From assembly GCA_036268155.1 (NCBI GenBank), contig DATAUQ010000042.1, positions 1 to 54,022 of the forward strand: a stretch of DNA of 54,022 nt. The letters run 5' to 3'. This DNA comes from Verrucomicrobiia bacterium (lineage in GTDB: Bacteria > Verrucomicrobiota > Verrucomicrobiia > Limisphaerales > UBA11358). The notes beneath the pieces were generated by a model. That model ran no database searches and was not told the DNA's origin. It was given only the letters and a program-made list of their open reading frames with translations. Shown here piece after piece: positions 10,936-34,120 of the stretch. Every line of letters starts with the position of its first letter. Position 1 is the first letter of the stretch. The translations under genes and the position numbers were made by a program.

Positions 10936-10939
10936 TTTT

Positions 10940-11379
10940 AGCCACAGATGGACTCAGATGAAACACAGATAAAAGCGGCGAAGGATTATTCGCTACAGCC
11001 AATCACCGAACAATTAATTGGTGCGGCGTTTGAAGTTCATAATGTGCTTGGCTACGGATTTTTGGAAAAAGTTTATCAGCGGGCAATGCAGGTTGAATTG
11101 CAATCGCGTGGCGTCAAAGTTGAATTGGAACCGTTGATAAAAGTTCAGTTCAAAGGCGTGATTGTCGGCGATTACGCGGCGGACTTGCTTGTTGCCGATA
11201 AAATAATTGTGGAATTAAAAACTGACGCAACGTATCAGCCGGTTCACGAAGCGCAACTATTGAATGAGCTTCGCGGCACTGGAATTCGGCTTGGTTATCT
11301 CATTAACTTTGGACGAGAACGCGTCGAATACAAACGTATGGTTTTTTAATCTGTGTTTCATCTGTGAAAATCTGTGGCT
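10940..11379 (+). mobile_element. Palindromic 'CACAGAT' element carrying a GxxExxY gene
   Basis: The 31-nt arms AGCCACAGATGGACTCAGATGAAACACAGAT (10940-10970) and ATCTGTGTTTCATCTGTGAAAATCTGTGGCT (11349-11379) are inverted copies, about 26/31 identical. The same arms recur at 30511-30615. Confidence 0.65.
10948..11349 (+). CDS. GxxExxY protein (PD-(D/E)XK nuclease superfamily, PDDEXK_3-like)
   Basis: It contains the signature GFLEKVY and a nuclease-like D...E-x-K (DYAADLLVADKIIVELK), and is ~130 aa long. The start codon and first ~8 codons lie inside the left repeat arm. Confidence 0.8.
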   Translation: MDSDETQIKAAKDYSLQPITEQLIGAAFEVHNVLGYGFLEKVYQRAMQVELQSRGVKVELEPLIKVQFKGVIVGDYAADLLVADKIIVELKTDATYQPVHEAQLLNELRGTGIRLGYLINFGRERVEYKRMVF

Positions 11380-11394
11380 AAAAATTTTAGAAAA

Positions 11395-15232: not shown

Positions 15233-15610
15233 CCTTCTGTTTTCGGGCATTTTCTGCGGTTCATTTTTCCATTGCGCGTCGTCAAGGCAAAGCCAACGTG
15301 GTATTTTGCGACGGCCACGTCGAATCGCCGACGTTGCAATTTCTTTTTGAAGACACCAGCGACGACGCCTTGTCCCGCTGGAACCGCGACCATCTGCCGC
15401 ACCGCGAAAAACTTTCACCGTGATTCTTCGTCCGCCAAAAAGCTGCGGAGCAGCGCGAGATAGTAGCCCACAGCCCGATCTGTGGGTAAAAGCGCCCAAC
15501 AGAAAAAGCTCCGGCAGGAGCGACAGAAAAACCACATCGCGCAAAGCATTTCTTCCGCCCCATCCGGGGCTTGATTCATTTGGCAACTAAACCCACGGTT
15601 TCACCTTGGG
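15233..15610. repeat. Non-coding cluster of degenerate REP-like repeats
   Basis: It contains GATAGTAGCCCACAGCCCGATCTGTGGGTAAAAGC...AGGAGCGACAG (15458-15526), a diverged copy of the 27831-27922 block. CCTTGGGCTATTTTC (about 15604-15618) resembles GCCCTGGGCTATTTTC at 29222-29237. No credible ORF is present. Confidence 0.6.
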
Positions 15611-16312
15611 CTATTTTCGTTCGCGCCATCCGGTGCTTGAACAAATTTCACGCGCACTGATGTGCGTCAAATCCGCCACCGCCCAATCCGGCTGGCATTT
15701 TTTCAATTCATCCAGCTTTGCGCCGCCAGTCGCCACGGCCAGAACTTTGGCGCCAATCGCTTTTCCGCAGCGAATGTCGAACGGCGTATCGCCGACCACG
15801 ACCATTTCTTCGCCGCGCAATCTTCTTCCCAGCACGCGATGGCTCCGGTCGTGCGCGGCAGCGGCGATCAAATCACGTTCCTCGTGGTCGTCGGCGAAAC
15901 CCCCGAACTCAAATTCTCCCCACAATCCAAAATGACGCAGCTTGATTTCCGCGCCGAGCCGGATGTTGCCGGTGAGCAGGCCGATGATCGGCGGATTCGG
16001 CAACGCACGCAGGTCACGCAGCATTTCCCAGACGCCGGGACAAATCTCGGTCTTGCTGCGCGCGAGAATCTGGTCAAGCCAGAAAATATAACGCTCGAAG
16101 AAGCGCGAGAAATTTTCCGGCGTGGCGGGAATGTCGTTATGTTTGAAAAATTCGCGGACAAGGCTGACATCCGTGCGCCCGGCGAACTTCATTTTTTCCA
16201 GGCCGTTGTGGGCGTTGAACTCGGTGGCAAAAGTTTTGGCGAAAGCCTGCGTGCCGGCGTGGCCCGTGTGGACGAGCGTGCCGTCAATGTCGAACAAAAC
16301 CAGTTTTACCAT
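15611..16312 (-). CDS. HAD-superfamily hydrolase (phosphoglycolate phosphatase-like)
   Basis: It has the HAD motif I LFDIDGTL, and the later GDTPFDI motif is present. Confidence 0.85.
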   Translation of the reverse strand: MVKLVLFDIDGTLVHTGHAGTQAFAKTFATEFNAHNGLEKMKFAGRTDVSLVREFFKHNDIPATPENFSRFFERYIFWLDQILARSKTEICPGVWEMLRDLRALPNPPIIGLLTGNIRLGAEIKLRHFGLWGEFEFGGFADDHEERDLIAAAAHDRSHRVLGRRLRGEEMVVVGDTPFDIRCGKAIGAKVLAVATGGAKLDELKKCQPDWAVADLTHISAREICSSTGWRERK

Positions 16313-16467: not shown

Positions 16468-17823
16468 ATGACACAAACGCTAGAAAAAAAAAACGGTGAC
16501 CTGACCGTGACCGAACCGTTCCTCGAAAAATTCCGCCACTTCGAGTCCGGCGCGAAATCGTCGCTGCTGTCGTTCCGCAAAGCCGGCCTTGCGCTATTTG
16601 CTGAACTTGGTTTCCCGACGTTGCAGAATGAAGATTGGCGTTTCACAAACGTCGCGCCGCTCGCGAAGCTGCCGTTTGCGCCGCTGTTTGAAGCGCCCGC
16701 CGTCAACGGCGCGGAAACCAAAGCGTTGAATGAATTTGCTTTTTCAAAACTTTCGGGCACGCGACTGGTTTTTGTGAACGGCCATTATTCGCCAAAGATT
16801 TCGACCGTCGAAAAACTTCCGGCGGGCGTGAAGGTCGGCAATCTGGCGGCGGCTTTGACTTCCGATGCCGTGTTGGTGGAAAAATATCTGGGCCGTTGCA
16901 CGCTTGCGCAGGACAATGCGTTCGCTGCGTTGAACCAGGCGTTTTTTCTCGACGGCGCGTTTGTCCATGTGCCAAAAGGCGTGGATGTCGCCACACCGAT
17001 CCAGTTGGTTTACATCTGTTCGGCCAACGAAACCGGCGCGACGGTGCAGCCGCGCAACTTGATCGTCGTCGAGGCGAACAGCCGCGTGACGATTGTGGAA
17101 AGTTACATCACGACCACGGACAATGCGTATTTTACGAACGCGGTGACGGAAATTTTCGCGGGCGACAATGCGTTCGTCGAGCATCTGAAATTTCAGGACG
17201 AGGCGCAGGCGGCATTTCACATTGCGGCGATCCACGGCGAATTTGGGCGGGCGAGCAATGTGAACATCCATTCGTTCGCGCTCGGCGCGAAATTGTCGCG
17301 CAACAGCATCCGCACGAAGCTCGCGGGCGAAGGTCTTGAGTGCATCCTCAACGGACTTTACCTCACGCGCGGCGAGCAATTGGCCGACCATCACATGATT
17401 GTCGAGCACGCGCAGCCGAATTGCGCGAGCCACGAGTATTTCAATGGCATCCTTGACGACAAATCAAAGGGCGTCTTTCACGGACGAATTCTGGTTCAGC
17501 AAATCGCGCAGAAAACCGATGCGAAGCAGACGAATAAAAATCTGCTGCTCTCCGATGACGCGACCGCCGACACGAAGCCGCAACTGGAGATTTACGCCGA
17601 CGATGTGAAATGCACGCACGGCGCGACCATCGGGCAATTAAATGACGAGAGCATTTTTTATCTGCGCACGCGCGGCATCGGCACGGACATGGCGCGGCAG
17701 ATGTTGATCCACGCCTTCGCCGGCGAGATCATCGAGCGCATCAAGTGCGAACCGGCGCGCGAAGCCGTTGACAAGCTCGTGTGGGATCGCCTCGAAGCGA
17801 ATCCGCATTTGGCCGCAAAATAA
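16468..17823 (+). CDS. sufD: Fe-S cluster assembly protein SufD
   Basis: The C-terminal beta-helix region ...HMIVEHAQPNCASHEYFNGILDDKSKGVFHGRILV...KPQLEIYADDVKCTHGATIGQLNDESIFYLRTRGI is characteristic of SufD. Confidence 0.9.
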   Translation: MTQTLEKKNGDLTVTEPFLEKFRHFESGAKSSLLSFRKAGLALFAELGFPTLQNEDWRFTNVAPLAKLPFAPLFEAPAVNGAETKALNEFAFSKLSGTRLVFVNGHYSPKISTVEKLPAGVKVGNLAAALTSDAVLVEKYLGRCTLAQDNAFAALNQAFFLDGAFVHVPKGVDVATPIQLVYICSANETGATVQPRNLIVVEANSRVTIVESYITTTDNAYFTNAVTEIFAGDNAFVEHLKFQDEAQAAFHIAAIHGEFGRASNVNIHSFALGAKLSRNSIRTKLAGEGLECILNGLYLTRGEQLADHHMIVEHAQPNCASHEYFNGILDDKSKGVFHGRILVQQIAQKTDAKQTNKNLLLSDDATADTKPQLEIYADDVKCTHGATIGQLNDESIFYLRTRGIGTDMARQMLIHAFAGEIIERIKCEPAREAVDKLVWDRLEANPHLAAK

Positions 17824-17905
17824 TTTGCCACAGAGTCACAGAGACGCCGAGAAAAACTGAGAAATTAAATTTTTAACTCTGTGCCTCTGCGTCTCTGTGG
17901 CAAAT
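17823..17905. repeat. REP-like 'CACAGAG' palindromic hairpin filling the sufD-sufU spacer
   Basis: ATTTGCCACAGAG (17823-17835) pairs with CTCTGTGGCAAAT (17893-17905). Both arms continue with CACAGAGACGC/GCGTCTCTGTG-type units. Confidence 0.7.
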
Positions 17906-17911
17906 TGAATC

Positions 17912-26491: not shown

Positions 26492-26505
26492 GAATCCACT
26501 TGAAC

Positions 26506-27750
26506 ATGGAGACTGAAAATTCATCCACCAACGGCGACGAGCCGCCTTCGCGCAGTTCGTTACAAACGCTCAAAGAATTCAAATCTGCGGGACGCGGCTT
26601 TTGGAGCGACGTTCCTGATTCGGATTGGAACGACTGGAAATGGCAGTTGAAACACCGCATCACGACGGCGGAGCAATTGCAAAAATTTCTGCCCACTCTT
26701 ACGCCCGAAGAATTTGCGGGCGCGAAACTCGCGAATACAAAACTCGCGCTTGCCATCACGCCGTATTTTTTCAACCTGATTGATCCGGCGGATGAAAATT
26801 GTCCGGTCCGGCTGCAAGTCATTCCCAAGCTCGCCGAATCCCACACCGCGCCGTGGGAGATGAGCGATCCCGTCGGCGAAGATTCGCACTCGCCCGTGCC
26901 GGGACTTGTGCATCGTTATCCCGACCGCGTTTTGTTTTTGGTGACGGATCGCTGCGCCTCTTATTGCCGTTATTGCACGCGCTCGCGGCTCGTGAGCAAT
27001 GCGAGCGGCTACGATTTTCATCCCGAATTCGACAAGCAGATCGCCTACATCGCCGCGCATCCCGAAATCCGCGACGTGCTTTTGAGCGGCGGCGACCCGC
27101 TTTTGTTGAGCGACGACAAGCTGGAAAATCTCTTGAGCCGCCTGCGCGCGATTCCGCACGTTGAATTTCTGCGCATCGGTTCGCGAATCCCGACCTTTTT
27201 GCCGCAACGCATCACGCCCGAACTTTGCGCGATGCTGAAAAAATTTCATCCGCTGTTCATGAGCGTCCACTCGAACCATCCGCGCGAACTCACGACGGAA
27301 GTGCGCGACGCGCTGGGCCGCCTCGCCGATGCCGGCATTCCGCTCGGCAACCAGAGCGTTTTGCTCAAGCACGTCAACGACGACGCGACCGTAATGAAGG
27401 CGCTCGTCCAGAAACTTTTGATGTGCCGCGTGAAGCCGTATTATCTTTACCAGTGCGATTTGATTTCCGGCTCGGCCCATCTGCGCGCGAGCGTGCGCCA
27501 GGGCATCGAGATCATGCAGCAATTGCGCGGACACACGACCGGCTACGCCGTGCCGCAATACGTCATTGACGCGCCCGGCGGCGGCGGCAAAGTGCCAGTC
27601 AATCCAGAATACGTCTTGAGCCACAACGCCGACCGCGTGGTGCTGCGCAACTACGAGGGAAAAATTTTCGAATATCCCGAAGCCGCCGATGGCACGCCGC
27701 TCTCCAAACCGCCGAAAGAAATTGAAGAGCCGGAGCTTTGCAAGTGTTGA
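26506..27750 (+). CDS. kamA: KamA-family radical SAM aminomutase (lysine 2,3-aminomutase-like)
   Basis: It has the radical SAM cluster CASYCRYCTRS, GGDPLLL, and a PLP-binding-region pattern. The ~415-aa length is typical of KamA rather than the shorter EpmB. Confidence 0.85.
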   Translation: METENSSTNGDEPPSRSSLQTLKEFKSAGRGFWSDVPDSDWNDWKWQLKHRITTAEQLQKFLPTLTPEEFAGAKLANTKLALAITPYFFNLIDPADENCPVRLQVIPKLAESHTAPWEMSDPVGEDSHSPVPGLVHRYPDRVLFLVTDRCASYCRYCTRSRLVSNASGYDFHPEFDKQIAYIAAHPEIRDVLLSGGDPLLLSDDKLENLLSRLRAIPHVEFLRIGSRIPTFLPQRITPELCAMLKKFHPLFMSVHSNHPRELTTEVRDALGRLADAGIPLGNQSVLLKHVNDDATVMKALVQKLLMCRVKPYYLYQCDLISGSAHLRASVRQGIEIMQQLRGHTTGYAVPQYVIDAPGGGGKVPVNPEYVLSHNADRVVLRNYEGKIFEYPEAADGTPLSKPPKEIEEPELCKC

Positions 27751-27922
27751 ACCGCGAACCACGCGAAATACGCGAACGGTTTTCAACGTAAAACTTCTGA
27801 CACGAATTCCACGAATTCACGCAAATTAAAAGCCTGTAAGGCTGACAGATAATAGCCCAGGGCAAACGCAGTGCCGCCCTGGGTTAAACGTCAAAAATTT
27901 CCAAGCCCTGTAAGAGCGGCAG
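27750..27922. repeat. Left composite inverted repeat flanking the Mrr-like orphan
   Basis: It has three sub-motifs: A at 27750-27778, B at 27799-27822, and C at 27831-27922 (containing the CCCAGGGC...GCCCTGGG hairpin). All three recur inverted at 29164-29328. Confidence 0.7.
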
Positions 27923-27967
27923 AAGTCTCGACAATGAATCGCGGAAGACGTAAAAGATTGTCCGACT

Positions 27968-29152
27968 ATGGCACTCACGGAACTTTGGAAAACCGCGCAT
28001 AAAGAAATTCAAGACAAGCACGTCCAGCAAGTCATTGGATTTGCTGGCGACGGTAAACTTCGCGACGGCGGGGCTGCTTCAAAAGAATTCCGTGATTTCC
28101 TCGCGCTTGTTCCATCCAATTTTCTTTCTCGATACGCAAATGACTGTTTGACGGATAAATTCGATAACAGCGGATTGGCATTGCAAGATGTCATCAATGA
28201 GGTTGGAACACGTCTTGGATTTCGCGTCGAGCAAGGCCGTTATCGTGGGACGCAGGGCGAGATTGGTTTCGATGGCCTCTGGATTTCGCCAGATGAAAAT
28301 GGACTCGTTGTTGAAGTTAAAACGACCGATGCTTACCGGATAGATTTGGAAACGGTTGCGACCTACCGGCGCAATCTGATTGCCGATGGGCGGATTAAGC
28401 AAACCAATTGCTCCATCCTGATTATCGTTGGGCGCACTGACACGGGTGATCTTGAAGCTCAAGTTCGCGGTTCTCGTCACGCGTGGGATATTCGGCTTAT
28501 CAGTATTGATGGGCTGCTTCGTCTCATGCACCTCAAAGAAGAATTGGACGACCCGAAAATCATGGGTAAAATTCGTCAAGTCCTGACGCCTCAAGAATTC
28601 ACAAAAGTAGACGGAATCATTGACCTTGTCTTTTCAACCACGGCAGACGTTAAGAAAGAGCAAGAACTTACGGAAGTAGCTGACGAAGAAGAAGACGAAC
28701 AGCACAAGACGAAGTTCACTCCACTCAATTTTCGCGATGCGTGCGCAATCAGAGTTCAAAAGCATCTTGGCCAGCCGTTGGTCAAACGATCTTCTGCCGT
28801 TTACTCATCGCCAGATGAAAATCTGGCTGTCGTTTGTATTAACTCACGAGAGTATAAAAACGCCAAGCGTTCAGGTCATTCGGGGTTTTGGTTTGCCTTT
28901 CATCCTCATCAGCGAGATTTGCTTCAGAATCATAAGCAGACATTTGTTGCTCTTGGATGCGGTTCGGCAGATACCATTCTTCTAATTCCTGGAAAGATAT
29001 TTATCAAATGGTTGGACCGATTCCATAAAACCGAACGTGACGACAGATATTATTGGCATATCCGAATTCACAAAGACAAAGAAGGCTATTTGTTGCGAGT
29101 TAAAAAAGGCGCGGATGCTGTTCGGCTTAACGAGTATTTGCTAAAAAACTGA
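27968..29152 (+). CDS. Two-domain orphan: N-terminal Mrr-like PD-(D/E)XK nuclease core plus an unassigned C-terminal module
   Basis: GEIGFDGLWISPDENGLVVEVKTTD gives D...E-x-K, followed by CSILIIVGRTD as in Mrr_cat. An acidic linker (EVADEEEDEQ) follows, then a C-terminal ~150 aa (HSGFWFAFHPHQ...YYWHIRIHKD) that I cannot place. The gene is AT-richer than its neighbours. Confidence 0.55.
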   Translation: MALTELWKTAHKEIQDKHVQQVIGFAGDGKLRDGGAASKEFRDFLALVPSNFLSRYANDCLTDKFDNSGLALQDVINEVGTRLGFRVEQGRYRGTQGEIGFDGLWISPDENGLVVEVKTTDAYRIDLETVATYRRNLIADGRIKQTNCSILIIVGRTDTGDLEAQVRGSRHAWDIRLISIDGLLRLMHLKEELDDPKIMGKIRQVLTPQEFTKVDGIIDLVFSTTADVKKEQELTEVADEEEDEQHKTKFTPLNFRDACAIRVQKHLGQPLVKRSSAVYSSPDENLAVVCINSREYKNAKRSGHSGFWFAFHPHQRDLLQNHKQTFVALGCGSADTILLIPGKIFIKWLDRFHKTERDDRYYWHIRIHKDKEGYLLRVKKGADAVRLNEYLLKN

Positions 29153-29163
29153 AAAGATAATTT

Positions 29164-29328
29164 CTGTCGCCCTTACAGGCTTAAATTTTTTGGACGATTA
29201 ACCCAGGGCGGCGCGCTGCTTGCCCTGGGCTATTTTCTTTCGGGCTTACAGCCCTGTTTAATTCGCGTTCGCGTGTTTGGCGTGGTTCGCGGTTGAAATT
29301 CTCCGCGTTAATCCGTGTAATTCGTGTC
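29164..29328. repeat. Right composite inverted repeat flanking the Mrr-like orphan
   Basis: It holds reverse-complement copies of block C (29164-29254), motif A (29266-29294) and motif B (29305-29328). Confidence 0.7.
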
Positions 29329-29403
29329 AAAAACTTTGTGCCTTTGTGTCTTGGTGGTTAAATTGAAATTTACTTCCGCGCATTTTTCTGCCAGATTGTT
29401 TCC

Positions 29404-29589
29404 ATGAGCGGAATCACTTTCATGGTGGATGAACGCGGTCAGAAAACGGCAGCCGTCATTGACCTGCGGAAGCATGAACAGCTTTGGGAAGATTTCCACG
29501 ACGCGCTACTAGCCAAGTCGCGCGCCCGCGAGCCGCGTGAGAGTCTCGCCTCCGTCCGGCAACGGCTAAAATCCCGTCGGAATGGCTGA
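29404..29589 (+). CDS. Type II antitoxin (small, precedes and overlaps a RelE/ParE toxin gene)
   Basis: This is a 61-aa protein whose 3' end overlaps the toxin start by 8 nt. Its ...AAVIDLRKHEQLWEDFHDALLA... pattern resembles antitoxins I recall paired with RelE/ParE. A TAAATT-ga-AATTTA palindrome lies upstream at 29359-29372. Confidence 0.6.
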   Translation: MSGITFMVDERGQKTAAVIDLRKHEQLWEDFHDALLAKSRAREPRESLASVRQRLKSRRNG

Positions 29590-29848
29590 TTACTCCATCA
29601 GCTTCGCCCGCTCCGCGCGCAAGGAATTGGAACATCTTTCTGGCGATGTCGCTGAACGGATTCTGGCGAAGATTGAATTGTTGGCTGGAAATCCTCGGCC
29701 TGTCGGCGTCATCAAACTTCACGGGCAGAAAAATCTCTGGCGAATGCGCGTCGGCGATTATCGCGTAGTTTATTCGATTGATGATTTTTCCAAGGCGGTT
29801 GACGTTTCCGTGATTCGTCATCGGCGCGATGTTTATCGGGATTTGTAA
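29582..29848 (+). CDS. relE: RelE/ParE-family type II toxin (mRNA interferase)
   Basis: This 88-aa protein reads YSISFARSARKELEHL...IELLAGNPRP...KLHGQKNLWRMRVGDYRVVYSIDD...VDVSVIRHRRDVY, which fits the RelE/StbE pattern. Confidence 0.8.
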   Translation: MADYSISFARSARKELEHLSGDVAERILAKIELLAGNPRPVGVIKLHGQKNLWRMRVGDYRVVYSIDDFSKAVDVSVIRHRRDVYRDL

Positions 29849-29851
29849 GTT

Positions 29852-30532
29852 ATGTTCCGTGAATCGCTCCAGACCAAAACCGCGCGGCTGAAAAAAATCA
29901 TCGCCGGTTTCCAAAAGACTTATCCCGATGCGCACTGCGAGCTGACTTACGCGAACCCGCTCCAATTGCTCGTCGCCGTGATCCTTTCCGCGCAATGCAC
30001 GGACAAGCGCGTCAACCTCATCACACCGGAATTGTTCAAAAAATATCACACCGCAAAAGATTTCGCGGACGCGCCGCGCGCGGAACTGGAGCAGTTCATC
30101 AAGTCCGCCGGATTTTTCCGCAGCAAGGCGAAGAACATCCAGAATTGCTGCCACAAACTCGTCGAGCTTCACGCCGACGAAGTGCCGCGCACGATGGAGG
30201 AATTGATCCAGCTCGACGGCGTCGGGCGCAAGACGGCAAACGTCGTCCTGGGCAACGCGTTCGATGTGGTGGTCGGCGTCGTCGTGGACACGCACATGAT
30301 GCGATTGTCGCACCGGCTCGGTTTGGTCACGGAACGGACGCCGGAAAAAATCGAACTCGCGCTGATGAAGTTGCTGCCGCAGAAATATTGGCTGGATTTC
30401 AGCCACTGGCTCGTCTGGCACGGACGCCGTCGCTGCTTCGCGCGCAAGCCAGATTGCGCGAATTGTGAAGTGCTGAAATGGTGTCCGCGAATCGGGGTGA
30501 AAGAAGTTTTAGCCACAGATGGGCACAGATGA
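29852..30532 (+). CDS. nth: Endonuclease III (DNA glycosylase/AP lyase)
   Basis: It has the HhH-GPD motif (LDGVGRKTANVVL), catalytic VDTH, and the 4Fe-4S cluster loop CFARKPDCANCEVLKWC. The last ~7 codons and the stop lie within a repeat arm. Confidence 0.92.
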   Translation: MFRESLQTKTARLKKIIAGFQKTYPDAHCELTYANPLQLLVAVILSAQCTDKRVNLITPELFKKYHTAKDFADAPRAELEQFIKSAGFFRSKAKNIQNCCHKLVELHADEVPRTMEELIQLDGVGRKTANVVLGNAFDVVVGVVVDTHMMRLSHRLGLVTERTPEKIELALMKLLPQKYWLDFSHWLVWHGRRRCFARKPDCANCEVLKWCPRIGVKEVLATDGHR

Positions 30533-30615
30533 AACACAGATAAGGTATCCGCAGATTTCGCTGATTGGCGCAGATAAATTTTCCATCTGTGTTTCATCTG
30601 TGTAAATCTGTGGCT
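30511..30615. mobile_element. Cargo-less (MITE-like) 105-bp copy of the 'CACAGAT' palindromic element
   Basis: The arms AGCCACAGATGGGCACAGATGAAACACAGAT (30511-30541) and ATCTGTGTTTCATCTGTGTAAATCTGTGGCT (30585-30615) are almost identical to the arms around the GxxExxY gene. Only 43 nt lie between them. Confidence 0.7.
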
Positions 30616-30617
30616 GA

Positions 30618-31298
30618 ATGAATTGGCTTCTTCTCAATTCCGGCAAATGCGACGCGGCGTTCAACATGGCGCTGGACGAAGCGTTGCTCGAAAATGTTTC
30701 GTTGCTCGGCAAACCGGTTTTGCGTTTTTATGGCTGGACTGAACCAGCAGCAACATTCGGCTACTTCCAAAAATTTTCTGAAGTCGAGCGCGCGACACAT
30801 TTGCGTCCGCTGATTCGCCGTCCGACGGGCGGCGGTATCGTGCCGCATGACGCGGACTGGACTTACAGTTTTGTCGTTCCGCCAAATTACGAATGGTATT
30901 CGCTGAAGGCGATAGAAAGTTACCGTCGCATCCACGAATGGATTCAAAGCGCGTTCACAAAATTAAAAATCGAAACCGAACTTGCGCCATGCTGCAAAAA
31001 AACTTTGCCCGGCCAGTGTTTCGCCGGCCACGAAAAATTTGATTTGCTCTGGCACGGGAAAAAAATTGCGGGCGCAGCGCAGCGGCGGAATAAATCCGGT
31101 TTATTGATTCAAGGCTCGGTTCAGCCACCGCCGATAAAAATTGTTCGCGATGATTTGGAAAATGCGATGCGCGAAGTCGCGTGTGAAAAATTTAAGGTTG
31201 AGTGGCGTGAATTTTCGCCGGACGAAAAGCTGCTTTCGCGCGCGGAGAAATTCGCATTGGAAAAATATGTGCTGACGAGTTACAATCAAAAGCGTTGA
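30618..31298 (+). CDS. Biotin/lipoate A/B protein ligase family protein (lipoate-protein ligase / octanoyltransferase-like)
   Basis: AFNMALDEALLE...LRFYGW...TFGYFQ...RRPTGGGIVPHD...GKKIAGAAQRR matches the BPL_LplA_LipB catalytic domain. Confidence 0.8.
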   Translation: MNWLLLNSGKCDAAFNMALDEALLENVSLLGKPVLRFYGWTEPAATFGYFQKFSEVERATHLRPLIRRPTGGGIVPHDADWTYSFVVPPNYEWYSLKAIESYRRIHEWIQSAFTKLKIETELAPCCKKTLPGQCFAGHEKFDLLWHGKKIAGAAQRRNKSGLLIQGSVQPPPIKIVRDDLENAMREVACEKFKVEWREFSPDEKLLSRAEKFALEKYVLTSYNQKR

Positions 31299-34003: not shown

Positions 34004-34009
34004 AACAAA

Positions 34010-34091
34010 TTTTGAGTTTTAAGTTTTTAATTTTTAGTTGAAGCGCGTGGCATCAGCTTCAACTAAAAACTTAAAATTAAAAATTCAAAAC
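34010..34091. repeat. AT-rich long hairpin (REP-like / terminator-like)
   Basis: A perfect 14-bp stem TTTTTAGTTGAAGC (34031-34044) / GCTTCAACTAAAAA (34056-34069) is present. The flanking arms extend imperfectly with TTTAAG/TTAAAA units. Confidence 0.6.
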
Positions 34092-34120
34092 TTCCTGCGC
34101 ATTTGGCACATTGAACCGCG

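Follow-up and report, generated by a model that had tools for sequence, protein, structure and literature searches.

Here we describe a compact gene-carrying unit in a 54,022-nucleotide stretch of DNA from a Verrucomicrobiia bacterium (contig DATAUQ010000042.1; hereafter the window, always meaning this stretch at its full length). The unit covers positions 27827-29258 (1.43 kb) and is made of four parts: a structured arm, a 41-nt leader, a single open reading frame (ORF) encoding a 394-aa two-domain protein with a PD-(D/E)XK nuclease core, and a second arm that is an inverted copy of the first. The arms belong to the Acido-Lenti-1 family, which is dispersed in related genomes as solo copies and as empty inverted pairs, and the same combination of arms, leader and gene stands at other, unrelated loci, where arms and gene have diverged together. 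Weighing all of this, we think it somewhat probable that 27827-29258 is a compact transposon-like unit with Acido-Lenti-1 ends, which carries a restriction- or defence-type nuclease as a passenger and is moved in trans or by exchange between arms. The loci used for comparison are referred to by numbers beginning with L.

The ORF (27968-29152, plus strand) is intact and enclosed by three pairs of inverted repeats. A first-pass annotation of the window had picked them out by eye, and its coordinates hold up on alignment: motif A pairs 27747-27778 with 29266-29297 (32 nt, 91% complementary), motif B pairs 27790-27822 with 29305-29337 (33 nt, 82%), and block C pairs 27834-27907 with 29178-29251 (74 nt, 80%), with extra pieces that lengthen the pairing. 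Each motif occurs twice in the window, and none of 100 dinucleotide shuffles gave any motif match. The same annotation was also right that the repeat begins within the stop codon of the upstream kamA gene, where arm A starts, and that the order of A and B is swapped, the left side reading A-B-C and the right side C'-A'-B'. The order A-B...A'-B' rules out a nested palindrome of A and B that was split by an insertion. The left arm, as we delimit it, runs from 27827 to 27926 on the plus strand and is a three-hairpin element of the Acido-Lenti-1 type that scores 112.8 bits against our own covariance model; its inverted copy, the right arm (block C'), lies at 29160-29258 on the minus strand and scores 114.2 bits. 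Between the left arm and the ATG, the leader (27927-27967, plus strand) holds a promoter-like arrangement of TCGACA (27928-27933), 17 nt, TAAAAG (27951-27956) and a further 11 nt. Motifs A and B had been taken as parts of one conserved structure with block C, a view that other copies of the unit contradict: the copy in L185 has neither A nor B, and in L001 both are rearranged. L001 and L021 do have a B-like piece beside their arms, which leaves B in either the local or an extended flank. Because the L185 copy lacks both, we assign A and B to the local flank and take 27827-29258 as the core unit. They are local hairpin arms of the oligomer type found at this genome's gene ends. Gene-end hairpins built of tandem 7-10-nt oligomers with T-rich loops are general in the intergenic DNA of the lineage, as at 17822-17906 and 34007-34093 in the window and in the kamA-nth spacers of L089, L057, L048 and L027, and A and B are of the same style.

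Block C has a name. The Rfam model of Acido-Lenti-1 (RF01687, gathering score 37 bits) matches both arms over its whole length, model positions 1-46 of 46, with 44.9 bits at 29202-29255 on the plus strand and 41.6 bits at 27830-27883 on the minus strand. The first-pass annotation had called the flanks the host's own repeat families, and they are indeed dispersed in these genomes; block C, however, is not an anonymous repeat but this curated family. Acido-Lenti-1 was described as a 46-nt motif of two hairpins, likely a small RNA (sRNA), from Acidobacteria and Lentisphaerae, and on function that description says only that group II introns are sometimes close by (Weinberg et al. 2010, PMC2864571). 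The Rfam model spans hairpin hp2, which in the left arm is CCCAGGGC...GCCCTGGG, together with one small hairpin, and the alignment of copies adds a third; hp1 and hp3 of the left arm are short GC stems with triloops. The single-stranded stretches are conserved as well, with the motifs GAnAATAGCCC... and ...GnCAGAAA. From the aligned arm copies we built a three-hairpin covariance model of 100 positions, whose E-values are rough. Across 28 copies, in an alignment fitted to that model, the three helices are 96.2% paired and 14 of 17 pairs show compensatory changes, and the covariation score is 0.52, against 0.18 in shuffled alignments (none of 500 reaches 0.52) and at most 0.11 in slid controls. 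Helices 1 and 2 are 94-98% paired, with changes on both sides in 11 of their 13 pairs, and the third helix, which lies beyond the Rfam model, is supported too. Read from the outer end toward the centre, the strand folds with z = -3.5 in the left arm and -4.0 in the right arm (minus strand), compared with about -1.8 on the other strand; the better-folding strand is thus opposite to the one annotated in Rfam. Both arms also carry a terminator-like consensus, in the right arm on the plus strand at 29202-29229 followed by CTATTTTCTT and in the left arm on the minus strand at 27883-27856, so that hp2 with its T-rich tail has, on both sides, the orientation that stops transcripts leaving the cassette. 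By the same consensus, an empty doublet would act as a bidirectional terminator.

Copies of the arm are scattered through related genomes. In about 1.45 Mb of related DNA the covariance model finds about 33, or roughly one per 45 kb. Many of them form empty doublets, that is, head-to-head pairs that always run plus then minus and are usually separated by 0-20 nt (in the window, L042, L053 and L021); in L134 and L080 the spacers are 74 and 195 nt. The doublet in the window occupies 15438-15640, with a plus-strand arm at 15438-15530, a 17-nt spacer and a minus-strand arm at 15548-15640; these arms score 45.1 and 47.5 bits with our model and 28 and 19 bits with RF01687, below its gathering score, and the stems of the two differ from one another in a compensatory manner. 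Leader and ORF of the unit, together 1.23 kb, occupy exactly the position that the short spacer has in an empty doublet. At about 200 nt, non-coding, with inverted-repeat ends and several dispersed copies, the empty doublets resemble miniature inverted-repeat transposable elements (MITEs). Solo arms also occur, among them copies directly 3' of kamA in L051, L068 and L022, all of which are without the ORF. The Rfam seed is itself multi-copy: one Lentisphaera genome holds dozens of copies, often in arrays, and some of its members are paired in inverted orientation with the spacing seen here, features that the description of the motif in Weinberg et al. 2010 does not mention. There is also a doublet variant with two hairpins and no hp2 (GCGCC-GTA-GGCGC ... 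GCCCC-GTC-GGGGC), seen in L030 (7979-8150), L053 (6316-6477) and L021 (11600-11780); the L030 copy sits just upstream of the antitoxin/ParE toxin-antitoxin (TA) module described below.

In the window, the unit lies between a kamA-like radical-SAM gene of the lysine 2,3-aminomutase type (26500-27750, plus strand; the identical gene in L016 has Radical_SAM and LAM_C Pfam matches) and nth, encoding endonuclease III (29852-30532, plus strand; HhH-GPD Pfam match in L016). A metagenome scan with KamA gave 80 loci at 82-93% KamA identity, across which the gene order prev482-kamA-...-nth-lplA-p706 is kept. The 394-aa ORF is at the kamA-nth junction in none of these 80 relatives, and the junction is either empty or occupied by other genes, the gap measuring 14 bp in L075 and L096, 55-126 bp in L091, L092, L048, L089, L057 and L027/28, and up to more than 5 kb elsewhere. 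An exact protein lookup with nth returned the same organism only (L016) and hence no empty site from that side. Where the kamA-nth spacer is short it is a hairpin of tandem 7-10-nt oligomers, and the window retains the right arm of this ancestral hairpin only, just outside motif B (CTTTGTGCCTTTGTGTCTTGGTGGTT, 29334-29359, matching the spacers of L089, L057, L018 and L020). The ORF has a GC content of 0.46 and a third-codon-position GC content (GC3) of 0.435; the median GC3 of long ORFs in the window is 0.65, and kamA and nth reach 0.70-0.74. Both earlier suspicions about this gene, that it is AT-richer than its neighbours and that it arrived by insertion, are thus borne out: the ORF is an insertion of foreign composition at a variable junction. 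In 21 of the 80 relatives, kamA and nth are separated by a conserved protein gene of about 750-800 aa without a Pfam match (for example L029 8071-10353), which is missing from the window's lineage; because those 21 relatives hold a conserved gene of about 760 aa there, the kamA-nth interval is not purely a place for cargo.

The same unit stands at other loci. At the RelB-YafQ/aconitase locus (L001-5, L179) the ORF is 94-96% identical and the arms score 109-113 bits on both sides; at the DAGK/GrpE locus (L185-188) the ORF is 83% identical and the arms score 87-89 bits on both sides; and at the GFO-oxidoreductase locus (L098, L182-184) the ORF is 84% identical and bracketed by degenerate arms of 16-20 bits. 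Homology between loci ends at or just outside hp1, although the ends of the element are not fixed to the base. Arms at the three loci score 87-114 bits, against 20-65 bits for random members of the arm family. The 41-nt leader is conserved in all arm-bearing copies, those of the window, L001 and L185 among them, and also in L104 and L010, and is replaced in the copies within DeoC operons. Between the window and L001, synonymous sites of the gene differ by 30% while the arms differ by only 2-8%, which argues that the arms are constrained. In the same comparison the outer halves of the arms cross-match left with right (0.92 and 0.97), and the inner halves are collinear with the gene (0.93 and 0.98); the centre has flipped relative to the outer ends, as expected of recombination between inverted arms. 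Between the window and L185, arm identity is 78-84% and ORF identity 77%; arms and ORF have diverged about equally, which points to long inheritance together. The gene tree puts every arm-bearing copy into a single clade (97% bootstrap support), interleaved with arm-less copies: those in a DeoC-ORF-Aldedh arrangement (85, 91 and 96% identity), one in an island of conjugative and restriction-modification (R-M) genes (L010), and one in L104, where the ORF follows ligA and has a solo arm downstream. The simplest reading of this pattern is that arm-leader-ORF-arm would be the persisting source form and that the arm-less copies would be immobilised derivatives.

The first-pass annotation had made it a test whether homologues elsewhere carry inverted repeats at their flanks, and the outcome is divided. 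The three loci above do, those of L098 and L182 in degenerate form, and at about 78-80 loci of family members in other phyla a BLAST comparison found no bracketing inverted repeats at all; the method sees well-preserved repeats and missed the degenerate arms of L098. Because some 80 loci in other phyla show none, the arm bracket is a lineage-specific vehicle and not a trait of the gene family. One Acidiferrales contig contains two sharply bounded copies of a 1.5-kb unit, 97.8% identical and about 500 kb apart (L146 3772-5263 and L157 3772-5266). The only gene in this unit is a homologue of our ORF, with 229 nt upstream and 96 nt downstream, and terminal inverted repeats, arm-like ends and a target duplication were looked for there and none was seen.

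The protein itself belongs to a large and unnamed family. A word-indexed search of clusters at 90% identity gave 3,768 relatives, nearly all of about 390 aa and full-length; an exhaustive search gave 1,348 cluster representatives at 50% identity, and a scan of species' genomes gave 441 hits in many phyla, including archaea (Bathyarchaeia). Searches of Pfam, NCBIfam, PADLOC and PDB sequences returned no match, either with the single sequence or with a profile of 60 sequences. In the AlphaFold model (pLDDT 84, pTM 0.83) the N-terminal domain is helical and alpha-beta-beta-beta-alpha-beta, and a disordered acidic linker (residues 227-250) joins it to a C-terminal alpha/beta domain (251-394). D102, E116 and K118 do not vary among 60 homologues, and E40 is kept in at least 90% of them; in the model D102 stands at the start of strand 103-106 and E116-V-K118 lies within strand 112-118. 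Foldseek of the whole protein against the PDB finds Nt.BspD6I (E 7.6e-4), NucS/EndoMS, the SPARDA nuclease, McrC, VRR-NUC, EcoO109I and PspGI, with E-values that are weak and matches that are consistently nucleases. A nuclease core had been predicted from the sequence and is upheld by these residues and folds; the label Mrr-like that came with it is not, as the Mrr profiles (Mrr_cat PF04471, Mrr_N) give no Pfam hit at E <= 1 for the protein and none at E <= 0.1 among the 60 members, and the sole match with Mrr in its name is one viral structure match of low probability (0.35). The C-terminal module had likewise been described as reader-like. Modelled alone (pLDDT 94) it has only weak and nuclease-like matches, to the SPARDA nuclease domain, DpnI, I-Ssp6803I, PvuII and RecU, with YTH readers far behind. 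Its invariant residues are C259, C290, C331, H364, W308 and W363, and because they contain no D...ExK it is probably a non-catalytic module for recognition or dimerisation.

Selection on the gene is strong, with a ratio of nonsynonymous to synonymous substitution rates (dN/dS) of 0.04-0.07 in arm-bearing and arm-less copies alike. No conserved neighbour gene of the family was found. A Dcm-type C5 methylase or Vsr lies within 4 kb at about 8 of 80 loci (some 10%, an enrichment; the screen covered C5 methylases only), and we discarded a classical type II R-M pair as the general case, there being no conserved partner and Dcm/Vsr at only about 10% of loci. With neither a C5 methylase nor Vsr next to it at about 90% of loci, the nuclease probably depends on modification or is self-contained in some other way. 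Defence-type neighbours recur nevertheless, namely RhuM, the YhcG nuclease, Dcm with Vsr and HATPase_c_3, and an MmeI-type gene (L010/L014). A module of Dcm, Vsr and a MORC/MutL-like HATPase_c_3 protein stands by family members in three distant lineages (L010/L014, 7649-10806 and 2529-6020; L117, L119, L175) and hints at a link to 5-methylcytosine systems in a minority of loci. A RhuM-family gene also lies directly 3' of the ORF homologue in several Verrucomicrobial loci (L177/L178 1776-3994, L100 and L101), with gaps of 2-13 nt. A phage or plasmid origin was rejected: phages gave no match and plasmids one partial match, and of 2.9 million viral contigs 3 matched. The one viral contig with a match to the hp2 pattern (L197) does not contain an arm. 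Our best guess is that the protein is a stand-alone DNase of the restriction or defence type.

If 27827-29258 is a transposon-like unit, the nuclease would be passenger cargo and the unit would be moved passively. The mover might be a trans-acting activity that also spreads the empty doublets, or the unit might move by homologous exchange between its own arms and resident copies of the repeat. The arms would at the same time serve as insulating terminators, keeping a potentially toxic gene transcriptionally isolated. Several points weigh against this reading. Inspection by eye of the ends in the window, L001 and L185, of the empty doublets and of the solo copies turned up no convincing target-site duplication. 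No transposase with matching ends was found, and in the scanned contigs no transposase lies between arms; a Y1_Tnp gene stands 5 kb from the unit in L001 and has no arms beside it. The interleaved order of A and B has no explanation in the unit model. Cargo captured by MITEs is usually short-lived, and here arms and gene have stayed joined even as synonymous divergence reached saturation; an autonomous element would explain this no less well. The pair counts from the covariation alignment are somewhat inflated toward structure by its fit to the covariance model, the related DNA scanned for arms amounted to about 1.6 Mb, with no complete genome among it, and the roles suggested for the leader as promoter and for hp2 as terminator are read at the level of consensus. 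The defence role is without direct support, PADLOC giving no match and the neighbourhoods being mixed. In L182 an IS110-family transposase gene (Transposase_20, 1301-2398) lies about 470 nt from the degenerate left arm.

The strongest competitor makes the unit an autonomous selfish element whose PD-(D/E)XK protein is its own mobility enzyme, either a repeat-homing endonuclease or a new kind of transposase, and we consider it possible, if on balance improbable. In the homing version, the protein would cut at the centre of an empty doublet and repair would copy the gene in by way of the ~100-nt arms, and the empty doublets and solo copies would be targets or non-autonomous derivatives. With one ORF between long terminal inverted repeats and a total of 1.43 kb, the unit looks like an insertion sequence (IS); the ORF is always at the doublet centre, replacing the 0-20-nt spacer exactly; and arms, leader and ORF have co-diverged over deep time at three or four loci. 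The lack of a target-site duplication and the occurrence of either orientation relative to the outer flanks are what homing into a palindrome predicts, and a palindromic target would suit a homodimeric nuclease. The 97.8%-identical duplication of a 1.5-kb single-gene unit in Acidiferrales speaks for autonomy as well, as does a second PD-(D/E)XK gene (GxxExxY) in another palindrome of the window, of which an empty copy is also present, and PD-(D/E)XK homing endonucleases do exist, I-Ssp6803I being among the fold matches. On the other hand, bracketing inverted repeats are seen at none of about 78 family loci in other phyla, the protein resembles no transposase or homing-endonuclease profile in Pfam or NCBIfam, the empty doublet of the window is only distantly like the filled arms (45-47 against 113 bits), and there is one copy per contig wherever this is visible. 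The copies in the DeoC-ORF-Aldedh operon (85, 91 and 96% identity) moreover keep a dN/dS near 0.05; homing endonuclease genes normally decay once fixed, and this argues that the gene has a function independent of mobility. Taken to its most specific form, the proposal is that Acido-Lenti-1 doublets and nuclease together make up a previously unrecognised selfish element with a "palindrome-homing" PD-(D/E)XK nuclease, which would recognise the symmetric arms, cut at the centre and be copied in, in either orientation and without target duplication. We offer this as a speculative idea that is rather unlikely to be right.

Less probable again, and in our view quite unlikely, is that the unit does not move at all. 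The doublets would then be resident bidirectional terminators that act as "safe harbours" for a promoter-ORF cassette arriving by another route, such as transformation followed by illegitimate or homologous recombination, and the cassette would survive preferentially in the middle of a terminator; the likeness among arms would come from homogeneity of the repeat family and from inner arm halves transferred along with the gene. Several observations suit this: hp2 with its T tract scores as a terminator, outward and on both sides; the leader-ORF cassette occurs without arms (L010) or with a solo arm or doublet only downstream (L104, L134); solo arms lie at the same position 3' of kamA in relatives that lack the ORF; and the arms are mosaic, their inner halves tracking the gene and their outer halves not. 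What disfavours it above all is the far greater likeness among filled arms than between them and other members of the family (87-114 against 20-65 bits); the arms have also diverged in step with the ORF, and independent landings at exact doublet centres at three or four loci would require a targeting mechanism anyway. An ordinary resident gene flanked by coincidental copies of a common intergenic terminator is hardly credible, for although the arm family is common in the lineage's intergenic DNA (about one per 45 kb), the gene is foreign in composition and absent from the junction in all 80 relatives, the same arms, leader and gene recur at unrelated loci, and in at least five distinct Verrucomicrobial contexts the gene has an arm no more than 150 nt away, far above the background density.

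Two neighbouring features deserve description in their own right. Downstream of the unit, at 29404-29848 on the plus strand, lies a separate and patchy module of a 61-aa antitoxin candidate (29404-29589) and a ParE-family toxin (29582-29848), the two genes overlapping by 8 nt. The pair had been annotated as a RelE TA pair; the 88-aa toxin matches ParE_toxin (PF05016, E 5e-12), and the 61-aa protein has no Pfam match. The layout is that of a ParDE-like type II TA system. The pair follows kamA in only 5 of the 80 relatives, where identity is 93-98% for the antitoxin against 86-88% for KamA. A conserved upstream region of about 40 nt (29363-29403) comes with it, and the module is itself mobile. 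Elsewhere in the window, a GxxExxY / PDDEXK_3 gene (10948-11349; TIGR04256 E 2.8e-38, PF13366 E 5.9e-37; GC3 0.425) fills the loop of a split hairpin of CACAGAT oligomers at 10936-11383 (arms 10936-10974 and 11345-11383), and an empty copy of this CACAGAT-type hairpin lies between nth and lplA at 30508-30618 (arms 30508-30541 and 30585-30618, with a 43-nt loop). We dropped the idea that a GxxExxY gene inside a hairpin is a general pattern, since 1.45 Mb of related DNA contained a single case.

Whichever way the compact transposon-like unit moves, recognising it sets Acido-Lenti-1, a curated RNA motif that has been without a known function since 2010, in a structural and genomic context for the first time, and brings the motif closer to an element of the MITE or REPIN type than to an sRNA gene. 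It also brings to light a large nuclease family for which Pfam, NCBIfam and PADLOC have no model, and which is mobile, strongly constrained and probably of the restriction or defence type. With filled, empty and solo sites, three independent insertions and a flipped centre, the system is a natural one in which to study the transposase-free movement of restriction-type genes, a question that has stood open since Furuta et al. 2010. Were palindrome-homing true, it would explain both an orphan Rfam motif and the constant position of the gene at the doublet centre, and perhaps also the GxxExxY gene in the second palindrome of the window.

How does the unit compare with what is already described? 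The first-pass annotation knew of no mobile-element class with this structure, which overlooks two precedents. Furuta, Abe & Kobayashi (2010, PMC2853133) found restriction genes of every type between long, imperfect inverted repeats in a transposon-like arrangement, without deciding whether such units are moved by the gene product or by a transposase acting in trans. Theirs and ours share a restriction-type nuclease gene (a role that we predict here), the lack of a transposase, imperfect long inverted repeats and empty sites in relatives. They differ in that, in the best cases of Furuta et al., the inverted repeats occur in the unit alone and target duplications of 8 bp are present, whereas here the repeats come from a dispersed structured family that also exists empty and no target duplication was recognised; our gene, moreover, has no obligate methylase partner and does not encode an established restriction enzyme. 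The second precedent is that of MITE pairs that bracket cargo, for example flanking integrons or mer in Acinetobacter (PMC6382973). Like MITEs, and like REPINs, which are inverted doublets of hairpin repeats, the Acido-Lenti-1 arms are short, structured, non-coding, palindromic and dispersed in intergenic DNA, and inverted pairs of such repeats can bracket and carry cargo. Here, however, neither a parental IS or REP-associated tyrosine transposase (RAYT) nor a target duplication was found, the arms are three-hairpin modules, conserved and supported by covariation, and not simple terminal inverted repeats, and, judging by the co-divergence, the association with the gene is old and not a recent capture. 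An IS in the ordinary sense is not indicated either, since the ORF between the repeats matches no Pfam or NCBIfam transposase family.

With Acido-Lenti-1 as originally described, the arms share the hp2 hairpin, the CUAnUUU linker and the 5-bp triloop hairpin, as well as multi-copy occurrence and, for some members of the seed, pairing in inverted orientation with equal spacing; the differences are that here the motif is half of a three-hairpin module of about 100 nt, that it occurs in Verrucomicrobia, and that it forms head-to-head doublets with terminator-like features and the ends of a gene-carrying unit. Among nucleases, the stand-alone two-domain restriction enzymes include those of type IV (Mrr, MspJI, PvuRts1I) and the Sau3AI-like enzymes with a degenerate second nuclease-like domain. 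The present protein likewise joins a PD-(D/E)XK core and an extra domain in one polypeptide, is encoded by a single gene, and is patchy in distribution with sometimes R-M-rich neighbourhoods; it departs from these enzymes in having no Mrr_cat, Pfam, NCBIfam or PADLOC match and a C-terminal domain without SRA, winged-helix or YTH assignment. The nearest parallel within the window, the GxxExxY gene, is also a PD-(D/E)XK gene of low GC3 in a palindrome of which an empty copy is present, but it is a single example from an unrelated family, with one domain, 133 aa and arms of CACAGAT oligomers of about 35 nt. What is new in the unit at 27827-29258 is thus the combination of ends that come from a curated, unexplained structured repeat family existing also as empty doublets, an ancient association of these ends with one gene, and the fact that no target duplication is seen.

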